Positions 2,754-53,453 of a DNA stretch of 64,000 nucleotides are shown here, in pieces. A model generated the notes under the pieces. The model was not told the DNA's origin and searched no databases. It was given only the letters and a program-made list of their open reading frames with translations. Origin of the DNA: Limnochordales bacterium. Its GTDB lineage: Bacteria > Bacillota > Limnochordia > Limnochordales > ZCTH02-B6. Each line of letters begins with the position of its first letter. The stretch's first letter is position 1. The stretch is from the NCBI GenBank assembly GCA_035304545.1, contig DATGPV010000018.1, positions 4,331 through 68,330 on the forward strand, in the 5' to 3' direction. The position numbers were made by a program, and so were the translations under genes.

Positions 2754-5700
2754 TCACACAACCCCCTCGACGCGATCTTCCGCGTCGGCCAGGATGGCTT
2801 GCAACTTCGCCCAGCGGTGGTCGTCGGCCTGCCAAAAGCCGCGCGCGTAAGCCTCCGCGAGCCGGCCCGCCATCCGTTGCACTGCCCGGGGATTCAGCTC
2901 AAGCAGGCGGGTCCGCATGGCGTCGTCCAACAGGAACGTGTCCGCGGCGGCGGTGTAGACCCAGCTGTCCACCGCGCCCGCGGTGGCCGACCAGCCAAAG
3001 GTGTTGTCCAGCCGCGTCGCAATCTCGTGCACCCCCTGGTAGCCGTGGCGCAGCATCCCTTCGTACCAGCGGGGGTTCAAAAGGCGCGTCCGGGTCTCCA
3101 GGCGCAGCGTCTGCGCGAGGGTGCGCACCTTTGCCCCGGGCGCCACGGTGTCGGCCACGAAGGCGGCCGGCGGCTGGCCCCGCACCTTTTGCGCGGCCGC
3201 GGCCAGGCCGCCCAAGTATTCGAAGTAGTGGTCCACGTCGGCCAGCCCGATTTCGGCGGAATCCAGGTTTTGAAACGCGGCCGCGCACGTTTTGAGGCAC
3301 GCGGCCAAAAGGTCCGGGTGGGCTTCTCCGGTCCGGCCGTCGCCGTAGACGTAGGCCTTGCGCTCCAGGAACGCCGCGCCCAAGTCGTCCGCGGTGTCCC
3401 ACGTGGACGCCTCCACCAGGTGATTGACGCCGGTGCCGTACTGCCCGGGGGCGTTGCTGAACACCCGGCGGGCTGCCTCCCGCAAGGGCAGGTCCAGGCT
3501 CCGGGCGATGGCCAGCGCGTGCTTGCGGATGTAGTTGTGCTCGGGATCTTCGTCGGCGGCGGCCGCCAGCTGGATAGCCCGGTCCAACAGCTCCAGGACG
3601 TTGGGAAAGATGTCCCGGAAAATCCCCGACACCGACAGCACCACGTCGATGCGGGGGCGGCCCAGCTCCGCCAAGGGCACCAGGGCCAGGCGGGTCATGC
3701 GGCCCAGGCTGTCGGGCAGCACCCGCACGCCGATGAGCTCCAGGACTTGGGCTACCCCTTCGCCCTGGGTCTTAATATTGTCGGTGCCCCAAAGCACGCA
3801 GGCGATGGTTTCCGGCCACCCGCCGTCCCGTTCCCGCAGGGCTGCCAAGAGCTGCTGGACCACGGGCCGGGCCCGGGCCACCGCGGCCGCGGACGGGATC
3901 CGGTGGGGGTCCAGGGCGTGCAGGTTGCGGCCCGTGGGCAGCGCGGCCGGCACCCGGGCGGGGTCGCCGCCGGGAGCGGGGGGGATGTACCGGCCGGCCA
4001 TGGCGGCCAGAAGGGCTGGGATTTCCCGGTCTTGACGCAGGCGCTCCAGGAAGTCCCGGGCAAAACCTAGCAGCGCCTCCCATTGGGGGCCCCGGGCTGC
4101 CCCCGGCAGCTCCGGCCAGGCCGCTTCCCCCGCGGCACCGTCTTTGGCCGGCAGCTCTCCGGCCGCCAGCAGGCGGACCACTTGCCGCCCCGCGTCCAGC
4201 ACCGCCGCGCGGCGGGGGTCGGCGGCGTCCAGCTGGTCCCAATCCAGCCCGAATCCTGCGGCGATGAGCTGGGGCAGGCCGGGGACCCCCAGTTCGGGGC
4301 GGGGGTGCTGCAGGGCGGCCCACAGGAATTCCGCGGCTTCCTCGGTGGTGACGGGTTCGCCGGCCACGTGGAGGCCCACGGGGATGAGCCGCTCCGCCAA
4401 GGTCCGCAGGTAGGTTTCCAGGCGGCCGACGTAGGCCTCGGGAGCCTCACCGTCCGCCGGCCGCGCCACGTCATCGTCCAGGTGCGCTTCCTGCGCCAGG
4501 GCCCGCACCGCTTCCCAGGCCCGTTGCCGCTGGGACTGGGGGGCGCTGCGCCAGGCCGCGAGGGCGTCTTGCAAGGCCAGGAGCTGGCGGTACAGCCCTG
4601 CCTCCCGCAGGGGCGGGCTCAAGTAGGTGACCATGGTCGCGTAGGCGCGGCGCTTGGCGATGGTGGCTTCCGAAGGGTTGTTCATGGAGTAAAAGTACAC
4701 GTGGGGCAAGTCGCCCAAGAGCAGATCCGGCCAGCAGCCGGCGGTGAGCCCCACCTGCTTGCCGGGCATAAACTCCAGCGCCCCGTGGGTGCCCAAGTGG
4801 ACCACCACGTCGGCCCGCCAGACGTGCTGCAGCCAGGCGTAATACGCGGCGAAGCTGTGGGAGGGGCTCGCGTCCTGGGCAAACAGCAGGCGCATGGGAT
4901 CCCCTTCCCAGCCGAAGCCCGGCTGAACGCCGATAAAGACATGGCCCAGGGCCCGGCCGCGGATGAAAAGGCCGCGCCCGTCGGTGTCCAGCTGGCCCGG
5001 GGCCGGGCCAAAGTTGGCCGCGATGCGGTCCGCGCCCGGCACCAGCCGGAGGTAGTCCTCCACCGGCAGCCGATCGGCCACGGCGATAGTAGGGGCGCCG
5101 GGCAAGGCTTCCTCGGACCCCAGCACCAGGTCCAGCAGGGTGCGGGGGTCGGGCGGCACCGTCACCTGGTAGCCGGCGGCTTGCATGGCCGCCAGCAGGC
5201 GGTGGAGGGTGCGAAACACGTCCAGGTAGGCCGCGCTGCCGACGCTGCCCTTGTCGGGCGGGAAGCTGAAGATGGTGATGGCCACCCGCCGCTGCGCCGG
5301 CGGCTTGCGGCGCAGGTCAACCCAGCGGCGGACCCGCCGGGCCAGGGCCGCCACCTGGTGTGCCTCCGGCACAAAGTCGCCATCCTGGCCCAGGCCGGCA
5401 AACACCCGGGGTTCTGTGGCTCCCTCCAGTTCGGGCAAGACCACCTGCAAGGCCGTCTGCATGGGCGCCAAGCCCACGGGATGCGCGAGCCACTGCTCGC
5501 GGGTCTGGAACAGGAGCGGGAAGGGGACCAGGTACGGCACGTCCAGTTCCTGCAAGAGCTGCACTGCTTGGTCGGGCTGGGGCCGGCCCATGGAGCCGAT
5601 GAGGTTGAACCCCGTCAAGTTCAGCAGGAGGTCAATGCCCGCGGGGCGCAAAAGCGTCGCCACCAAGGTGCGGTTGTCCAGCCCGCCGAACCCCGCGACC

Positions 5701-46332: not shown

Positions 46333-47547
46333 ATGCGCGCCCTGTCGTCCCTGTTCAGAGGATATGTTATAATCAGAGCAAAGGGTGGCCGCCTCGAAGC
46401 GTTCGTAAACCGGGTCGTCGCCCAGGGGATCGCCCTGTGGCGGCTGGAGCGGGTGGCCCCGCACCTCCTGGTGGCCCGGGTGGCGGCGTCCGACTTCCCG
46501 CGGGTGGCCAGGGCGGGCCGGCGGCTGGGAGTGCACGTGGTCATCCTGCACAAGGCCGGCCTGCCGTTTTTGTTGCTGCGGGCTGGACGCCGGCCCGCCT
46601 TCGTGGCCGGCGGGGCGCTGCTGGCCGCCCTGCTGTACGTGCTGGGCCAGTTCGTCTGGTTCGTGCGGGTGGAGGGTGTCCAGGCCTTGCCGCCGCACCG
46701 CCTGTTGGCGGTGGCGGCCGAGGCGGGCTTGCGCCCGGGCGTTTTGCGGGACCTGGTGCGGCGGGACGTGGTGGAGCGGCGGCTGTACCTGGAGATCCCC
46801 CAGTTGGCCTGGACGGCGGTGGAGATCCGGGGCACGGTGGCCACCGTCCGGGTGGTGGAGCGCACCGAACTGGAGGCCGGCCAGCGGCAGCCGGGCCATA
46901 TCGTGGCCGTACGCGACGGTGTGGTGGAACAGGCGGCCGCGCTGCGGGGCGAAGTGCTGGTGACCCCCGGGGAAACGGTGCGGGCGGGCCAGCCCCTCAT
47001 CAGCGGCATGCTGCCGCCGGGCAGCGCGGAGTACCAGGAGCACATCGCCCGGGGTCAGCTGCCCTACGTGCGGGCCGCCGGCGTCGTGCGGGGCCGCACG
47101 TGGTACCGGGGGCTGGCGGAGGCGCCGCTTGTGCGGGTCGTAGAGGAGGATACGGGCAGGCGGCACCGCTACGGGATCCTCCGCCTGGGCCGGTGGCAAC
47201 TGCGCCTGGGCCGCACCGCGGCCCCCTTTGCCGCGGCCCGGTGGGAGGAGCACACCCGGTCGCTGGCCGCCCTACCCGGGCTCTCGTGGACGTGGCATGT
47301 GGCCTACGAAGTCCGGCGGTGGGAGGAACCCGTGGGCGCGGCCCAGGCCCGGGCCGAAGCGGTGGCCCAGGCCCGCGCCCAGGTGGCGGCGCAGCTGCCG
47401 GCCGGGGGCGAAATTCTGGACGAGCAGGTAACCGTCACCGAGGACCGGTCCGCGGGTGTGGTGCGGGCCATGGTCACGCTGGAGGTCCTGCAGGATCTGG
47501 GCCGGTTTGCGCCCATCGGCGCCGGCCCGGACGGCCAAGACGGCTGA
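46333..47547 (+). CDS. yqfD: Sporulation protein YqfD (stage IV)
   Basis: LFRGYVIIRAKGGRLEAFVNRVVAQGIALWRLERV, a central TM segment, and YqfD family architecture. It follows yqfC. Confidence 0.9.
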   Translation: MRALSSLFRGYVIIRAKGGRLEAFVNRVVAQGIALWRLERVAPHLLVARVAASDFPRVARAGRRLGVHVVILHKAGLPFLLLRAGRRPAFVAGGALLAALLYVLGQFVWFVRVEGVQALPPHRLLAVAAEAGLRPGVLRDLVRRDVVERRLYLEIPQLAWTAVEIRGTVATVRVVERTELEAGQRQPGHIVAVRDGVVEQAAALRGEVLVTPGETVRAGQPLISGMLPPGSAEYQEHIARGQLPYVRAAGVVRGRTWYRGLAEAPLVRVVEEDTGRRHRYGILRLGRWQLRLGRTAAPFAAARWEEHTRSLAALPGLSWTWHVAYEVRRWEEPVGAAQARAEAVAQARAQVAAQLPAGGEILDEQVTVTEDRSAGVVRAMVTLEVLQDLGRFAPIGAGPDGQDG

Positions 47548-47573
47548 CTTCCGGGGAGGGATACGGACCAGCT

Positions 47574-48602
47574 TTGAGCAAACCGTTGATGGAAGCCGCC
47601 TTCGCGGTGGAGGACAACTCCGCGGCCCTGGGCGTCTTTGGCGAGCGGGATGAGCACCTGCGCACCATCGAGCGGGCCCTGGGGGTAACCATCGTGCCCC
47701 GGGGCAACGCCCTCGCCATCAGTGGAGAGCCGGCCGCCGTGGACCAGGCTCTGCGGGTGCTGCGGGATTTGGCGGAACTATGCCGGACGCGTCCTTACCT
47801 GACGGCCCAGGAGGTCCGCTACGCCCTGCGGCTGGCCGCGGGGGGCGCCGGCGCCACGCTGGCAGACATCCAGCGGGATGTGGTGGTGGTGACGGCCCGC
47901 GGGCGGCCGGTGACGCCTCGCACCTTGGGGCAAAAGCTGTACGTGGACGCCATGCGGCGCCACAGCCTCGTCTTTGCCATCGGGCCCGCGGGGACCGGCA
48001 AGACGTACCTCGCGGTGGCGGTGGCCGTGGCCGCCCTGCGGGCCCGGTCGGTGGCCCGTCTCGTCCTGACCCGGCCCGCGGTGGAAGCCGGGGAGCGCCT
48101 CGGTTTCCTCCCGGGGGATCTGCAGGATAAAGTGGATCCCTACTTGCGGCCTTTGTACGATGCCTTGTACGATATTGTCGGTGCGGAGGCGTTCCAGCGC
48201 CAGGTGGAGCGGGGCGTCATCGAGGTGGCTCCCCTGGCCTACATGCGGGGCCGGACCCTGGAGGACGCCTTTGTCATCCTGGATGAGGCGCAAAATACGA
48301 CGCCCGAACAGATGAAGATGTTTCTTACCCGCATGGGCCTCCGCTCCCGCATGGTGGTCACGGGGGACTTGACGCAGATCGACTTGCCCCCGGGCCAGAT
48401 GTCGGGGCTGGCCCATGCCCGGGCCGTGCTGGCCGACACGGGCATTCCCTTTGTGGATTTGTCCGACGCGGATGTCGTCCGGCACGAGCTGGTGCAAAAG
48501 ATCGTCCGCGCCTACGAGCGGGCGGAGCAGCGCGGCTTGCGGGCTCGGCCGGCGGGCCGGGCCCCCGAGCCGGGAGATGAGGAGTATGACCAAGAAACCT
48601 GA
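47574..48602 (+). CDS. phoH: PhoH-family ATPase (YqfE/PhoH-like)
   Basis: VFAIGPAGTGKTYLAVAVAVAAL (Walker A)...FVILDEAQNTTPEQMKMFLTRMG...MVVTGDLTQIDLP. The start is TTG 47574 or ATG 47589; neither has a well-spaced SD. Confidence 0.92.
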   Translation: MSKPLMEAAFAVEDNSAALGVFGERDEHLRTIERALGVTIVPRGNALAISGEPAAVDQALRVLRDLAELCRTRPYLTAQEVRYALRLAAGGAGATLADIQRDVVVVTARGRPVTPRTLGQKLYVDAMRRHSLVFAIGPAGTGKTYLAVAVAVAALRARSVARLVLTRPAVEAGERLGFLPGDLQDKVDPYLRPLYDALYDIVGAEAFQRQVERGVIEVAPLAYMRGRTLEDAFVILDEAQNTTPEQMKMFLTRMGLRSRMVVTGDLTQIDLPPGQMSGLAHARAVLADTGIPFVDLSDADVVRHELVQKIVRAYERAEQRGLRARPAGRAPEPGDEEYDQET

Positions 48603-51102
48603 CGGTACCGGAGTCCACGATCCGGCCCGCAAAGGAGGCGCCCACCGGGTGTGGGCGTCTTTGCGCGCGGGCCTGTGGGAGCCGGTGCACGGCTTTTTCT
48701 CCCGGTCCAGCCGGGCCCGGCGGGTCCTGTTGGCCGCCGTGATGTTTGCGGTACTGCTGGCGGTGATGGCCGCCGACAAGGCGCCTGACGTGCTGGACTG
48801 GCAAGTGGGCGACGTGGCCACCCGGGACGTGGCCGCGCCCCGGGACGTGGTGGACCGCTACCGCACAGAGCAGCTGCGGGAGCAGGCGGCCCGGGAGGCG
48901 GTGCGGCAGGCCGAGCTGGACCCTGTGAACTGGGAAATTAATCCCGCCGAAGCCCTGCGGGCCGAGGAGCGGGTTAAGGCCATTTTCCAGATACTGTGGG
49001 CGGTGCGGGCCCGGGCCGGGGTCGAGCTGGGCGGCGAGCCCGGCGGGGGAGCGCCCCCGGAGCCTGGGGCCACCGCACCCGGAGCCGGCGGGGAACCGGA
49101 CGCCGCGGCCGGCGCTGCGGCACCGGCCGATGACGGGGCCGGAGACACCGGGGCGGCGGGCGACGCCCTTTCGCCGGAGGTCGCCGAGCCGGCGCCGTCC
49201 GTCGCCCTGCCCCCCGAGCTGGTGGAGGAGCTGCTGGCCGAGGCCGAGGCGCTCTTGGCCGAGCAGGGTATGCCCCTCGGGCGTGACGTCCTGGCCTACG
49301 GGTTGACGCGGGACGACGGTGCCCTCGCGGCCCTGGAGGAGCGCACCCTGCGGGTGGTGGCCGATGTGATGCTGCGCCGCCGCATCAGCGCCGAAGACCT
49401 GGAGCGGGAGCGGGAAGCGGTGGCGGCCGAACCGCAGGTGGCGACCCTGTCCGGGGAGGAGCAGGCCTTCGTGGCCGAGGTGGTGCGCGCGGTCCTGCGC
49501 CCTAACCTGATCCCAAGTCCGGAGCGCATCGAGCGGGCCCGGCAGGAAGCGATGCGGGCCGTGGCCGAGGTGCGGGTCCGGGAAGGCCAGATCATTATCC
49601 GCCGCGGCGACCCGGTGACCGTGGAACATATCATGCTGCTGCAGGATCTGGGCATGCTGGACGGCCGCTACAGCTACGGCCAGCTGGCCGGCGACGCGCT
49701 GCTGCTGCTGCTCCTGTTTGCCATGGTCGGGGTGTACCTCAACCAGCACCGGCGGGACATCCTCACCAACGAGAAGCAGCTGGCCCTGCTGGGCCTCATC
49801 GTGCTGCTGGTGGTCGGTTTGGCCAAGGTGGGCACCTTCATCCCCTGGGACGGCACGGCGCTGCTGGTGCCCGTGGGGCTCGCGGGCCTGCTGGTCACGC
49901 TCCTTTTGGATTCCCGGCTGGCCATGCTGGTGACCGTCGTCCTGGCCATCCTGTTGGCCGCGCTGTTTGGGTTTGATGGACGCTACTTTGTGGTGGCTGT
50001 CGGCGGGGGCGTGGCGGGCGTGTACAGCGTTTCCCGGGTCAGCCAGCGGTCGGATCTGACTCGCGCCGGCCTCATCGTGGGCGGGGCGTGCTTCCTGACC
50101 ATGATCGCCCTGGGGCTGCTGCGCAGCGAGATGTTTCTCATCCAGTACTCGTTTTTGGGGCTCCTCAACGGCCTTGTGTCCGCGGTGGGCACCATCGGGC
50201 TGTTGCCCTACCTGGAGACGCTGTTTGGCATCACCTCCTCCATCCGCCTCCTGGAGCTGTCCAATCCCAACCACCCGCTGCTGCGCAAGCTCCTGATGGA
50301 GGCGCCGGGCACGTACCACCACAGCATTCTGGTGGGCAACCTGGCAGAGGCCGCCGCGGAGGCCATCGGCGCGGATCAGCTGCTGGTGCGGGTGGGGGCC
50401 CAGTACCACGACATCGGCAAGACCAAGCGGCCCTACTTCTTCGTGGAGAACCAGTTTGGAGGGGACAACCCCCACGACAAGATTTCGCCGACCTTGAGCA
50501 CGTTGATCATCATCTCCCACGTGCGGGACGGCGTGGAACTGGCCAAGGAGTACCAGCTGCCCGAGGTCATCGTGGACTTTATCCGGGAACACCACGGCAC
50601 CGACCTGGTGAAGTATTTCTACCAAAAGGCGGTGGAAAACGCCAAGGGCGAGCCCGTGGACGAGCTGGACTTCCGCTATCCGGGGCCGCGGCCCCAGTCC
50701 AAGGAAACCGCGGTGGTCATGCTGGCCGACGCGGTGGAGGCGTCGGTGCGGTCCTTGGGGCGGCCGACGCCAGGCCGCATCGAGGGCCTGGTGCGGCGCA
50801 TTATCAAGGAGCGGCTGGAAGCGGGCGAGCTGGACGAAAGCGACTTGACCCTCAAGGACCTGGACAAGATCGCGGAAGCTTTTGTGCGGGTCTTGACGGG
50901 CATCTACCACAAGCGGGTCGAATACCCCGACATGAGCGCCAAGGAACAGGAGTTGAAGCGGCTCAAGGAGCGGCGGCGCGCCGGCCGGGAAGCGCCCCAG
51001 GCCGCCCACGACGGTGTGCCCGACGCCCTACCGCCCGGCGGACAGCCCGCCCCGCAGCCCGCTTCGCAGTCGGGCTCGCACCAAAGCGCACAGGTGGGAT
51101 AG
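48586..51102 (+). CDS. pgpH: 7TM-HD membrane phosphohydrolase (YqfF/PgpH-like, putative cyclic-di-AMP phosphodiesterase)
   Basis: N-terminal TM segment plus an extracytoplasmic domain, a 7TM region, and a C-terminal HD domain (HSILVGNLAEAAAEAIG...GAQYHDIGKT...ISHVRDGVELA...IREHHGT). The start (48577 or 48586) overlaps the phoH 3' end. Confidence 0.9.
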   Translation: MTKKPDGTGVHDPARKGGAHRVWASLRAGLWEPVHGFFSRSSRARRVLLAAVMFAVLLAVMAADKAPDVLDWQVGDVATRDVAAPRDVVDRYRTEQLREQAAREAVRQAELDPVNWEINPAEALRAEERVKAIFQILWAVRARAGVELGGEPGGGAPPEPGATAPGAGGEPDAAAGAAAPADDGAGDTGAAGDALSPEVAEPAPSVALPPELVEELLAEAEALLAEQGMPLGRDVLAYGLTRDDGALAALEERTLRVVADVMLRRRISAEDLEREREAVAAEPQVATLSGEEQAFVAEVVRAVLRPNLIPSPERIERARQEAMRAVAEVRVREGQIIIRRGDPVTVEHIMLLQDLGMLDGRYSYGQLAGDALLLLLLFAMVGVYLNQHRRDILTNEKQLALLGLIVLLVVGLAKVGTFIPWDGTALLVPVGLAGLLVTLLLDSRLAMLVTVVLAILLAALFGFDGRYFVVAVGGGVAGVYSVSRVSQRSDLTRAGLIVGGACFLTMIALGLLRSEMFLIQYSFLGLLNGLVSAVGTIGLLPYLETLFGITSSIRLLELSNPNHPLLRKLLMEAPGTYHHSILVGNLAEAAAEAIGADQLLVRVGAQYHDIGKTKRPYFFVENQFGGDNPHDKISPTLSTLIIISHVRDGVELAKEYQLPEVIVDFIREHHGTDLVKYFYQKAVENAKGEPVDELDFRYPGPRPQSKETAVVMLADAVEASVRSLGRPTPGRIEGLVRRIIKERLEAGELDESDLTLKDLDKIAEAFVRVLTGIYHKRVEYPDMSAKEQELKRLKERRRAGREAPQAAHDGVPDALPPGGQPAPQPASQSGSHQSAQVG

Positions 51103-51108
51103 ACGGCC

Positions 51109-51588
51109 ATGGACGTGGTGGTGACCAAACGCACGGCGGCCCCGCTGCCCGAGGGCGCCGCCCGGCAGCTGGCCGCGGCGGGGCGGGCGGCCTTGGCCGC
51201 GGAAGGCATGCCCGACGGGGTCGAGGTGTCGGTCACGCTGGTGGACGACGAGGAGATCCGGACTCTCAACCGGGACTACCGGGGCCAGGACGCGCCTACC
51301 GATGTGCTGTCCTTTCCCCTCTGGGAGCCCGATGAGATCGCGGCCCTGCGCCTTGACCCCCAGCGGTGGCCCGAGCGGCCGCTGCTCTTGGGCGATGTGG
51401 TCATCTCCGTGGAAACCGCGGTCCGCCAGGCCGAGGAATACGGCCACGGCCTGGAGCGGGAGCTGGGGTATCTGTGCGTCCACGGGGTGCTCCACTTGCT
51501 GGGTTACGACCACCAGGAGGAGGCGGCCCGGGCCGTCATGCGGGCCCGGGAAGAGGCCATTTTGTCCCAGCTGGGCCTGGCCCGCTGA
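51109..51588 (+). CDS. ybeY: rRNA maturation endoribonuclease YbeY
   Basis: TDVLSFP...GDVVIS...[14 protein letters not shown] contains the HGxLHLxGYDH zinc motif. Confidence 0.95.
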
Positions 51589-51617
51589 CACAGGAGGCGG
51601 CTGCCGGTGAAGCGCAC

Positions 51618-52508
51618 ATGAGCCCCATGCGGGCCCGCACGTTGGGCGAGAGCTTTCGGTACGCTTTCGCGGGCGTAGCCTACGCCTGGCGCACCCAGCG
51701 CAACCTGCGCGTTCACGCCGCGGCGGCGGTGGTGGTGCTCCTGCTGGCGTGGGCCGTGGGGGCGACGGGCGGGGAGCTGGCGCTCTTGGTGCTCACCATC
51801 GGCATGGTGGTGGCCGCGGAGCTGTTCAACACGGCCATCGAGGCCGTGGTCGATCTGGTGACCGAGGCGTACCATCCCCTGGCCGCGGTGGCGAAAAACG
51901 TGGCAGCGGGAGCGGTGCTGGTGCTGGCCGGGGTGGCGGTGGTCATCGGCTACCTGGTCTTTGTCCCCCATCTCCCGCCGGCGCTGGCGGCGGTGCCCGT
52001 GGGGGGTTGGGCGGCGGCGCTGGTGCTGGCGCCCCCGGCAGTCATCACAAGGAGGGTGATCACGGTGCAGGAGACGGATAGGCAGCCGGTTTCCGGTCTG
52101 ACGGAGGCCGAGGTGGAGCAGCTGCTGGCTGCGGCCCGGGCGGTGCGGGAGCGGGCCTACGTGCCCTACTCGGGCTTCCGGGTGGGGGCAGCCTTGCTGA
52201 CGGCGGGGGGCGACATCGTCGCGGGCTGCAATGTGGAAAACGCGTCGTACGGGGCCACCATCTGCGCCGAGCGGGTCGCGCTGGGCACGGCGGTGGCCGC
52301 CGGCCACCGGGATTTCCGGGCCCTCGCGGTGGTCACCGATGGGGACGAGCCCGCGACCCCCTGCGGCATCTGCCGGCAGAGCCTGGTGGAGTTTGCCCCT
52401 AACATGCCCGTCATCCTGGCCAACCTCCAGGGCCGGCGGCAGGTGACCACCGCGGCCGAGCTGTTGCCGGGCGCTTTTCGCTTGCCTGCCCGCGAAGGGA
52501 AAGGCTAA
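51618..52508 (+). CDS. dgkA: In-frame fusion ORF: DgkA-family lipid kinase (diacylglycerol/undecaprenol kinase) + cytidine deaminase
   Basis: The DgkA part is FRYAFAGVAYAWRTQRNLRVH...AAELFNTAIEAVVDLV...AKNVAAGAVLV, with 3 TM segments. There is no stop before the Cdd domain in the same frame (the single track ORF runs 51366..52508). Confidence 0.8.
   Translation: MSPMRARTLGESFRYAFAGVAYAWRTQRNLRVHAAAAVVVLLLAWAVGATGGELALLVLTIGMVVAAELFNTAIEAVVDLVTEAYHPLAAVAKNVAAGAVLVLAGVAVVIGYLVFVPHLPPALAAVPVGGWAAALVLAPPAVITRRVITVQETDRQPVSGLTEAEVEQLLAAARAVRERAYVPYSGFRVGAALLTAGGDIVAGCNVENASYGATICAERVALGTAVAAGHRDFRALAVVTDGDEPATPCGICRQSLVEFAPNMPVILANLQGRRQVTTAAELLPGAFRLPAREGKG
52065..52508 (+). CDS. cdd: Cytidine deaminase domain/gene (possible independent initiation inside the fusion ORF)
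   Basis: AYVPYSGFRVGAALLTAGGDIVAGCNVENASYGATICAERVAL...PCGICRQSLVEF carries the CAE and PCGxCRQ zinc motifs. AAGGAGGG (52049-52056) lies 8 nt before the in-frame GTG 52065. Confidence 0.75.
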   Translation: MQETDRQPVSGLTEAEVEQLLAAARAVRERAYVPYSGFRVGAALLTAGGDIVAGCNVENASYGATICAERVALGTAVAAGHRDFRALAVVTDGDEPATPCGICRQSLVEFAPNMPVILANLQGRRQVTTAAELLPGAFRLPAREGKG

Positions 52509-52511
52509 GCT

Positions 52512-53453
52512 GTGGGAGGAATGGATTCCCGCGTGGGGGAAAGGAACGTCTTCCGAGAGGCTTCCTCGGCCAAGGGCTTCCGCTCTGGGTTCGCCGCCAT
52601 CATCGGGCGGCCCAACGTGGGCAAATCCACGTTGCTCAACTGTATTGTCGGCGCCAAGGTGGCCATCGTCTCGGACAAGCCCCAGACGACCCGCCACCGC
52701 ATTCAGGCCGTCTTGACCCGGCCCGATGCCCAGGTGGTGTTCATCGACACCCCGGGCCTGCACAAGCCCAAGCACCGGCTGGGCGACTATATGGTCCGGG
52801 TGGCGCGGGCCACGTGGTCCGAAGTGGACGTCATCCTCTGGGTGGTGGACGGGGCTGCGGGGGTGCGGTCCGCGGACAAGCGCATCGCTAGGGAGCTGGC
52901 GGGCATCGAGACGCCGGTGGCTTTGGTGGTCAACAAGCTGGACCTGGTCGAGGATAAAGCAGCCGCGGTAGCCGCCTTTGCCGAGCTGGGAACCTTTGCC
53001 CACGTGGCGCCCGTGTCGGCCGTCACAGGGGAAGGCACCGCCGAGCTGGTGGACTGGATCGTGGCCCGCCTGCCGGAGGGACCCAAGTACTTTCCCGACG
53101 AATGGCTCACCGACCGGCCCGAGGAGTTCCTCATCGCGGAGCTCATCCGGGAACAGGTCTTTCACCACACCCAGGAGGAAGTGCCCCACTCGGTGGCGGT
53201 GGTGGTGGAGGCGATGCGCCGCCGGCCGGACCGGGATCTGGTGGATGTGCAGGCCACCATCCTGGTGGAACGGGAAAGCCAGAAGGGCATCATTATCGGC
53301 CAGGGCGGGCGCATGCTCAAAGAGATCGGCCGCCTGGCCCGCATGGAGATCGAAGCCCTTTTGGGCAGCCAGATCAACCTGCAGCTGTGGGTCAAGGCGA
53401 AGCCGGGCTGGCGGGACCGCCCCGGGTCGCTTCAGGAACTGGGGTACCGTTGA
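52512..53453 (+). CDS. era: GTPase Era
   Basis: FRSGFAAIIGRPNVGKSTLLN (G1), DTPGLH (G3), NKLD (G4), and a C-terminal KH domain. The start is GTG 52512 or ATG 52521. Confidence 0.95.
   Translation: MGGMDSRVGERNVFREASSAKGFRSGFAAIIGRPNVGKSTLLNCIVGAKVAIVSDKPQTTRHRIQAVLTRPDAQVVFIDTPGLHKPKHRLGDYMVRVARATWSEVDVILWVVDGAAGVRSADKRIARELAGIETPVALVVNKLDLVEDKAAAVAAFAELGTFAHVAPVSAVTGEGTAELVDWIVARLPEGPKYFPDEWLTDRPEEFLIAELIREQVFHHTQEEVPHSVAVVVEAMRRRPDRDLVDVQATILVERESQKGIIIGQGGRMLKEIGRLARMEIEALLGSQINLQLWVKAKPGWRDRPGSLQELGYR

Follow-up and report, generated by a model that had tools for sequence, protein, structure and literature searches.

The window analyzed here, a 64,000-nucleotide stretch of a metagenome-assembled genome (MAG) of a Limnochordales bacterium (contig DATGPV010000018.1), contains a gene in which dgkA, encoding a small membrane-embedded lipid kinase, and cdd, encoding a soluble cytidine deaminase, form one open reading frame (ORF) on the plus strand at 51618..52508. 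Both domains are intact, the fusion is conserved among relatives, the linker between the domains is under purifying selection, and a Shine-Dalgarno (SD) motif and start codon inside the ORF are conserved as well. Taken together, these features lead us to consider it somewhat probable that the gene is a genuine, selectively maintained dgkA-cdd fusion with two products, a membrane-tethered DgkA-Cdd protein and a free Cdd.

An uninterrupted frame runs from ATG 51618 to TAA 52506-52508 (296 codons plus stop), and the 296-residue product is identical to NCBI protein MFS8664844.1, which carries the title “MAG: cytidine deaminase [Limnochordales bacterium]”. A preliminary description of the locus had reported the lack of a stop between dgkA and cdd, a complete three-helix DgkA, and a complete Cdd with CAE and PCGICRQ motifs, and all of this was borne out by Pfam, TIGR01354, and AlphaFold. 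The DgkA (prokaryotic diacylglycerol/undecaprenol kinase) domain lies at 51657..51962 (residues 14 to 115) and covers the whole of the Pfam profile DAGK_prokar (PF01219, positions 1 to 102 of 102) with 110.7 bits against a cut-off of 22.3 (E = 3.4e-32); the window protein also matches E. coli DgkA structures by phmmer (E = 1.8e-9). AlphaFold predicts a surface helix at residues 9 to 26 and membrane helices at residues 28 to 46, 51 to 78, and 87 to 118, with predicted local distance difference test (pLDDT) values mostly of 84 to 93 and a mean of 86.5 for the whole model. These are the same helices as in E. coli DgkA, a 121-residue homotrimer (PDB 3ZE3/3ZE5, 2KDC). The catalytic Glu/Asn/Glu/Asp/Lys set is conserved too: E68, N71, E75, D79, and K93 do not vary among 25 fusions, align with E. 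coli ELLNSAIEAVVD...AKD, and correspond to the E. coli active-site residues Glu69, Asn72, Glu76, Asp80, and Lys94. At the next position the window protein differs, having Asn94 where E. coli DgkA has Asp95.

The second half of the protein is a homotetramer-type cytidine deaminase domain at 52104..52481 (residues 163 to 288), with CAE at 52263-52271 and PCGICRQ at 52359-52379. It contains the Pfam cytidine/dCMP deaminase zinc-binding domain (residues 166 to 261) and exceeds the cut-offs of both TIGR01354, the tetrameric cytidine deaminase family (141 bits against 113.65, residues 167 to 288), and NF004064 (140.3 against 74). The zinc ligands, the catalytic Glu, and the CNVEN motif (C216, E218, C249, C252, N205, and E207) are all there, with little or no variation among the fusions. 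With Foldseek, the modeled Cdd part superimposes on 2FR6, 1JTK, and 2D30 with target-normalized template modeling scores of 0.91 to 0.95 and a root mean square deviation of about 0.9 Å. In tetrameric deaminases, the C-terminal Phe of an inter-subunit LLPxxF motif closes the active site of the neighboring subunit. The corresponding LLPGAF (L282, P284, and F287) is invariant in the fusions, which suggests that Cdd oligomerization is retained. The ratio of nonsynonymous to synonymous substitution rates (dN/dS) among relatives is 0.10 to 0.39 for DgkA and 0.08 to 0.28 for Cdd, pointing to purifying selection on both, and on the basis of conserved residues and models both halves look catalytically competent.

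A stop codon of dgkA lost through assembly or sequencing error, or through mutation in a single genome, would produce the same frame, and the preliminary description had raised both an assembly error and a recent loss of the stop. The source of the window is a MAG, and certain database “fusions” are clearly artifactual, as detailed below for two sequences on a frameshift-ridden long-read contig (P0028 and P0066) and a third (P0197). Against this, copies of the gene in six independent assemblies (ENA, the NCBI MAG GCA_047459605.1, and four Logan runs) differ from that of the window by 0 to 1 nucleotide, and the identical protein is recorded in 47 blocks of the assembly collection and on 44 contigs, among them a 138-kb ENA contig and contigs from several independent sequencing runs. 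Neither concern survives the comparison with relatives: both Limnochordales subgroups are fused at 56 to 75% amino acid identity, the synonymous differences among fused relatives are near saturation (proportion of synonymous differences, 0.4 to 0.65), the frame is open at the junction in the related genomes, and the differences in linker length are all in frame, the window having two codons more than two close relatives (L175 and L087) by a 6-nucleotide indel. Hence, an artifact or a very recent lesion is effectively refuted already, and we give it only a vanishing share of the probability.

Proteins of this architecture are few but turn up repeatedly, as an exhaustive HMMER scan covering 1.84 billion representative proteins showed. 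A homology search yielded about 25 clusters (90% identity) that carry both domains. Of these, 21 (P0001 to P0021) are full-length fusions with 56 to 100% identity that fall into two subgroups, members of both being labeled Limnochordales; in all eight relatives for which DNA was compared, the gene context is ybeY-fusion-era-queA-tgt. At least four other fused lineages share less than 50% identity with the window protein (P0024, P0025, P0146, and P0159, the last two confirmed by Pfam), including a protein from the cultured Aneurinibacillus tyrosinisolvens (P0025), and these four are independent fusions. Among the matches listed, all 80 reference Bacillota loci, a set without any Limnochordales genome, lack a fused dgkA-cdd, and in several reference genomes (L009, L011, L014, and L020) a single stop codon is all that separates dgkA from a cdd in the same reading frame. 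Separate, adjacent genes are also what the preliminary description had stated for Bacillus, correctly, and the same holds for Paenibacillus and others. In one Limnochordia MAG (L047, JAWLBR010000117.1), cdd-era is preceded by two DUF881 genes and there is no dgkA within 3 kb; therefore, the fusion is not universal in the class Limnochordia. A metagenome scan with the window protein returned mostly generic Cdd motif matches and no further fused loci.

Several candidates from these searches were rejected. Most two-stretch matches in the representative-protein search were tandem Cdd-Cdd proteins rather than DgkA fusions. Two 361-residue “fusions” (P0028 and P0066) were discarded as well: the long-read contig has many split genes, and the middle of the protein reads like an out-of-frame PAP2 domain. 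On the contig that encodes P0028 (L094, ENA ERZ25039591 contig_3665), genes are split, HIT breaks off at 48 residues, and era is in two pieces; P0028, and similarly P0066, is probably a DgkA-PAP2 gene and cdd merged by frameshift errors. P0197, an apparent stand-alone DgkA with the linker, is a frameshifted copy of P0013.

The two domains are joined by a linker of 45 residues, which in the window includes PPALAAVPVGGWAAALVLAPPAVITRR (residues 120 to 146, about 51975-52055). The preliminary description had noted a hydrophobic stretch followed by Arg-Arg in this linker and had argued that one more membrane crossing would be needed to return a fused Cdd to the cytoplasm. The stretch is there: the extra segment ALAAVPVGGWAAALVLAPPAVI (51978..52046, residues 121 to 142/143) places 22 apolar residues after helix 3, followed by Thr-Arg-Arg, and is a putative fourth transmembrane helix that would form a hairpin with helix 3. 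Its best 19-residue Kyte-Doolittle average (KD19) is 1.75, against 2.00, 1.98, and 2.68 for membrane helices 1 to 3, and AlphaFold predicts a helix at residues 121 to 137 (pLDDT about 68 to 79) after a two-residue break from helix 3. The segment shows dN/dS values of 0.16 to 0.6, indicating purifying selection, with mostly apolar exchanges. Among stop-free 45-residue segments drawn from all six frames of the window, 2.4% reach this hydropathy and 0.4% are in addition followed by at least two Arg or Lys residues, and the hydrophobic linker is not a trivial by-product of the 72% G+C content. Beyond it lies a predicted-disordered, poorly conserved tether (52029..52103, residues 138 to 162), with a pLDDT of 44 at residues 141 to 150, a length that varies among relatives, and nearly neutral dN/dS values of 0.5 to about 1 after codon 150 (residues 150 to 165).

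The classical topology study of E. coli DgkA is reportedly that of Smith et al. in 1994. The E. coli protein has an N-terminal cytosolic surface helix and three membrane helices, and it is a trimer (PMC4703834). From this structural description and the established topology of the enzyme, the C terminus of the three-helix core would lie on the outer side because the number of crossings is odd, and a Cdd fused to the end of helix 3 would therefore need one more crossing to be cytoplasmic. Residues 13 to 114 of the window protein align with residues 14 to 115 of E. coli DgkA, whose end corresponds to about residue 120 of the window protein; the argument for an extra crossing is thus supported, since the E. 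coli protein ends after helix 3, at about the point where the window protein continues with the putative fourth helix, the tether, and Cdd.

The same layout is found in all five fused lineages, where a hydrophobic segment and, after it, a basic cluster separate the two domains. It is more convincing in the other lineages than in the window: the segment of A. tyrosinisolvens, ISFVIVSILVLVFLIAGVV-RYRR, has a KD19 of 3.16 and that of P0024 a KD19 of 2.12, and P0146 and P0159 have the same arrangement. Such an extension is uncommon in DgkA proteins that are not fused to Cdd. Of the non-fused DgkA proteins from 85 loci, 50 stop no more than 19 residues past helix 3, 32 run on into a PAP2 domain, and only 2 have a single extra helix. 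A hydrophobic segment with a basic cluster is present in only 2 of 53 non-fused, non-PAP2 proteins.

For two of the independent fusions, the relatives indicate where the helix came from. In a complete Aneurinibacillus genome, dgkA is a separate gene that encodes a fourth helix and whose stop codon overlaps the start of cdd (ATGGATGA). The encoded kinase and the fused protein of A. tyrosinisolvens share 64% identity over a region that extends through helix 4, and in Aneurinibacillus helix 4 predates the fusion. P0146, for its part, can be aligned with a DgkA-PAP2 protein, and its helix 4 falls on the first helix of the PAP2 module. The nearest non-Cdd relative of the window DgkA domain is also a DgkA-PAP2 protein (P0064, 63% identity), and in this comparison the alignment stops at residue 119, with no match of the window helix 4 to the PAP2 module beyond it.

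Both of these potential donors are known architectures. DgkA-PAP2 fusions, followed by a separate cdd, occupy 32 of the 85 loci (L016, L018, L034, L035, L053, L057, L102, L113, and others) and occur very frequently in Clostridia, Hydrogenispora, Capillibacterium, and some Paenibacillus; they join the lipid kinase to a likely undecaprenyl-pyrophosphate-type phosphatase. In these proteins (P0064, Hydrogenispora L016, Capillibacterium L018, and many from Clostridia), membrane helices directly follow DgkA as the putative helix 4 does in the window protein, which, unlike them, has no PAP2 domain or PSGH motif according to Pfam. The stand-alone four-helix DgkA proteins (L036, Aneurinibacillus sp. 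Ricciae_BoGa-3, 3330-3520; L078, Peptostreptococcaceae), a rare variant of a kinase described as the smallest, have one extra hydrophobic helix and a basic C terminus after helix 3, a layout that the putative helix 4 and Arg-Arg of the window protein resemble. They differ in that a stop follows, overlapping the cdd start, and in the hydropathy of the helix (KD19 of 2.3 to 3.3 versus 1.75 in the window).

The fused gene also appears to have kept the translation start of the former cdd. The preliminary description had pointed to an SD motif 8 nucleotides before an in-frame GTG, and the equivalent site proved to be conserved in all 11 fused genes with available DNA. In the window, AAGGAGGG at 52049..52056 precedes GTG 52065..52067 (codon 150) by 8 nucleotides, and initiation there would give a free Cdd of 147 residues. 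The anti-SD duplex energy at this codon, −11.7 kcal/mol, is the strongest among the 36 in-frame NTG codons, against −6.0 kcal/mol for the gene's own start. Across the 11 genes, an SD-like motif (AAGGAGG, AAGGAAGGTG, AAGGGAGGG, or AAAGGGGTGGA) lies 4 to 9 nucleotides before an in-frame ATG or GTG, 16 to 41 codons upstream of the deaminase core. The junction NTG has the best anti-SD pairing of the 22 to 39 in-frame NTG codons in 10 of them and is tied in the eleventh, with duplex energies against the 16S rRNA 3′ end of −10.2 to −12.4 kcal/mol, compared with −4.4 to −9.3 kcal/mol at the genes' own starts. Because the ancestral cdd ribosome-binding site (RBS) and start persist within the ORF, a free Cdd is very probably made from the same gene by way of this RBS and GTG 52065. 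A second candidate start, GTG 52113..52115 (codon 166) with GGAGG 5 nucleotides upstream, is weaker.

Public annotation reflects this ambiguity inconsistently. One and the same Limnochordales sequence appears as a 296-residue and as a 131-residue “cytidine deaminase”, the latter (HLT57738.1 in the NCBI annotation) starting at GTG 52113, and the DgkA half is unnamed or unannotated; for A. tyrosinisolvens, RefSeq lists only a 135-residue internal-start Cdd (WP_047154969.1).

Shorter second products from in-frame internal starts are known for other bacterial genes, for example those of ClpB, IF2, and CheA. The window gene resembles these in having an SD and a start inside the ORF and a short product that would be the C-terminal part of the long one; it differs in that its predicted internal start was once the start of a gene of its own and has simply been kept.

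The motif might alternatively not serve as a start at all, having been kept as an Arg-Arg or Arg-Lys “positive-inside” anchor, as a relic, or as a pause site, in which case all Cdd would be tethered. In the window, the motif falls precisely on the basic cluster required by the topology, as it also encodes Arg145-Arg146 (AGG AGG) after the hydrophobic segment. Further, AAGGAGG is not enriched across the window (10 occurrences versus 6.7 expected), and the RNA around the internal SD is predicted to fold no better than shuffled sequence (z = 0.40), giving no significant structure at the junction that would point to regulation. What supports an internal start is therefore where the motif lies, which codons spell it, and how well it is conserved. 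Topology requires Arg or Lys but not AGG, and the SD is spelled AGG AGG even though AGG makes up only 7 of the 251 Arg codons (2.8%) in eight neighboring genes. All 11 genes have an ATG or GTG 4 to 9 nucleotides after the motif. In A. tyrosinisolvens, whose gene is 45% G+C, the SD (AAAAGGGAGGG-7nt-ATG) and the basic cluster (RYRR) are in different places; therefore, the SD does not merely encode the positive-inside signal. Finally, the three chains of one DgkA trimer cannot complete a homotetramer. We thus regard a gene with the tethered protein as its single product as rather unlikely.

The main rival is a gene that still works as two cistrons and simply has no stop between them. Active Cdd would come essentially from the internal start, the long chain would be tolerated as a by-product, its Cdd part perhaps in the wrong place, not assembled, or broken down, and the linker would matter only as a C-terminal extension of DgkA. 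Several observations speak for it: in all of the fused genes, the internal SD is stronger than the one at the gene's own start; SDs in this operon, such as that of era, normally lie inside the preceding ORF; stand-alone four-helix DgkA exists; and in two genomes the short Cdd is the only product that RefSeq and the Prokaryotic Genome Annotation Pipeline record. The weak helix of Limnochordales subgroup 2, described below, favors this rival as well, and the trimer/tetramer mismatch, also taken up below, speaks against an obligate fused assembly.

Several further points weigh against a functional tethered enzyme. On the Hessa scale, helix 4 sums to about +6 kcal/mol, against +2 kcal/mol for membrane helices 1 and 2, because it contains three prolines together with two glycines, and as modeled it would be a marginal membrane crossing. 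In Limnochordales subgroup 2 (P0010 to P0021), KD19 is 0.94 to 1.54 and the AlphaFold helix has only 11 residues, too short to cross the bilayer; a genuine crossing in this subgroup seems doubtful, yet the fusion persists. Since B. subtilis-type cytidine deaminase needs the tetramer to form its active site, a chain that combines it with trimeric DgkA carries a symmetry mismatch, which the disordered tether or free subunits may resolve. The link between the two enzymes has no functional rationale beyond operon neighborhood. In addition, the impression that the fusion has never reverted is partly a matter of ascertainment because reverted relatives would look like ordinary separate genes.

What speaks against two independent cistrons is the persistence of the open frame. 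A stop in the linker would cost nothing under that explanation, yet about 20 Limnochordales clusters and four other lineages remain open, and the frame has survived an in-frame 6-nucleotide linker indel and near-saturated synonymous divergence. Moreover, every fusion pairs the hydrophobic segment with a basic cluster, as a cytoplasmic Cdd would require. We therefore judge two cistrons without a stop to be unlikely, if still deserving serious attention.

We continue to favor a maintained fusion with two products, for which the following scheme may be proposed. The long product of 296 residues would be a DgkA-family lipid kinase whose three-helix core ends outside the membrane; a marginally hydrophobic fourth helix (residues 121 to 143), followed by Arg-Arg, would insert and turn the chain back to the cytoplasm, where a flexible tether of about 25 residues would carry the intact tetramer-type cytidine deaminase. 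The short product of 147 residues would be free Cdd made from the retained cdd RBS (AAGGAGGG) and GTG 52065. The preliminary description had offered a choice between a membrane-tethered enzyme and a recent stop loss with free Cdd as a possible addition; this framing is probably wrong, as the data favor a tethered form existing side by side with free Cdd, and the tethering itself may be of some benefit to the cell. A more speculative extension, attractive although we consider it improbable, is that three Cdd domains tethered to one DgkA trimer are completed by one free Cdd to a docked tetramer and that the five independent fusions illustrate an even-helix fusion rule. If true, three tethered subunits plus a free one would reconcile the two symmetries and bring pyrimidine salvage to the membrane, beside undecaprenyl or phospholipid metabolism, and an even number of membrane helices would be the condition for fusing a membrane protein to a cytoplasmic enzyme encoded downstream.

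The gene lies in what is otherwise a classical Bacillota era operon (PMC6738653), with the order yqfD, phoH, a 7TM-HD protein gene, ybeY (51109..51588, plus strand), the fusion, era (52512..53453, plus strand), queA, tgt, yajC, and secDF. Bacillus and Staphylococcus have separate dgkA and cdd genes in a ybeY-dgkA-cdd-era operon (PMC6738653). As in that operon, the genes of the window follow the same order and belong to the same two protein families, the end of dgkA contains an SD for cdd, and era is tightly coupled; the window differs in having no stop codon, a 45-residue linker with a putative extra hydrophobic helix, and a membrane enzyme and a soluble enzyme in one chain. The era start, GTG 52512, is 4 nucleotides past the fusion stop, and the era SD (GAAGGGAAAGG) lies within the last codons of the fusion; this tight spacing with an overlapping SD is common to all Limnochordales relatives.

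Upstream of the fusion (51592-51621) is a mini-ORF of four codons, GTG 51607 AAG CGC ACA TGA, with AGGAGG 9 nucleotides upstream and a TGA that overlaps the fusion ATG 51618 as ATGA. The relatives L175 and L087 have the same layout of SD, GTG, three codons, and a TGA overlapping the ATG. As ATG 51618 is otherwise preceded by only a poor SD (−6.0 kcal/mol), the mini-ORF may be a termination-reinitiation coupling device. Further upstream, the mechanically defined ORFs of phoH (46437-48602) and of the 7TM-HD, PgpH-like protein (48415-51102) run far upstream through Gly/Ala/Arg/Pro-rich translations; their true starts are probably much further downstream, and gene callers give proteins of 337 and 838 residues.

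Cdd also occurs in other composite proteins (P0095, P0106, P0084, P0043 to P0061, P0145, and P0147). These include YbeY-Cdd proteins of 294 residues, another fusion of operon neighbors, as well as Cdd with F420-0:glutamate ligase (PF01996), Cdd with a TsaA-like domain (PF01980), and tandem Cdd-Cdd; P0084, Cdd with the N terminus of Era, looks like a frameshift artifact.

No relevant description of a DgkA-Cdd fusion or of a membrane-anchored Cdd was found in the literature searched. Both enzymes are well known and fusion of operon neighbors is common, so the biochemical novelty is limited and involves no new chemistry or mechanism. For annotation, the retained internal RBS, which probably makes this a two-product gene, accounts for the inconsistent public records, and labeling the product as bifunctional would prevent DgkA from being scored as missing in Limnochordales genomes.

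The wider interest of the gene lies in how it is built. The DgkA of B. subtilis is regarded as an undecaprenol kinase (PMC5723303, citing Jerga et al. 2007), and in Bacillota the family is taken to have this activity. The neighborhood of dgkA and cdd extends across Bacillota without a known functional rationale, which makes a covalent link between the two enzymes noteworthy, and joining a trimeric to a tetrameric enzyme poses an unusual assembly problem. The extra helix appears to have been recruited from a pre-existing four-helix DgkA in Aneurinibacillus and from DgkA-PAP2 in P0146. With an extra helix and a basic cluster in each independent DgkA-Cdd fusion, these proteins would be a clear case in nature of gene fusion constrained by topology.

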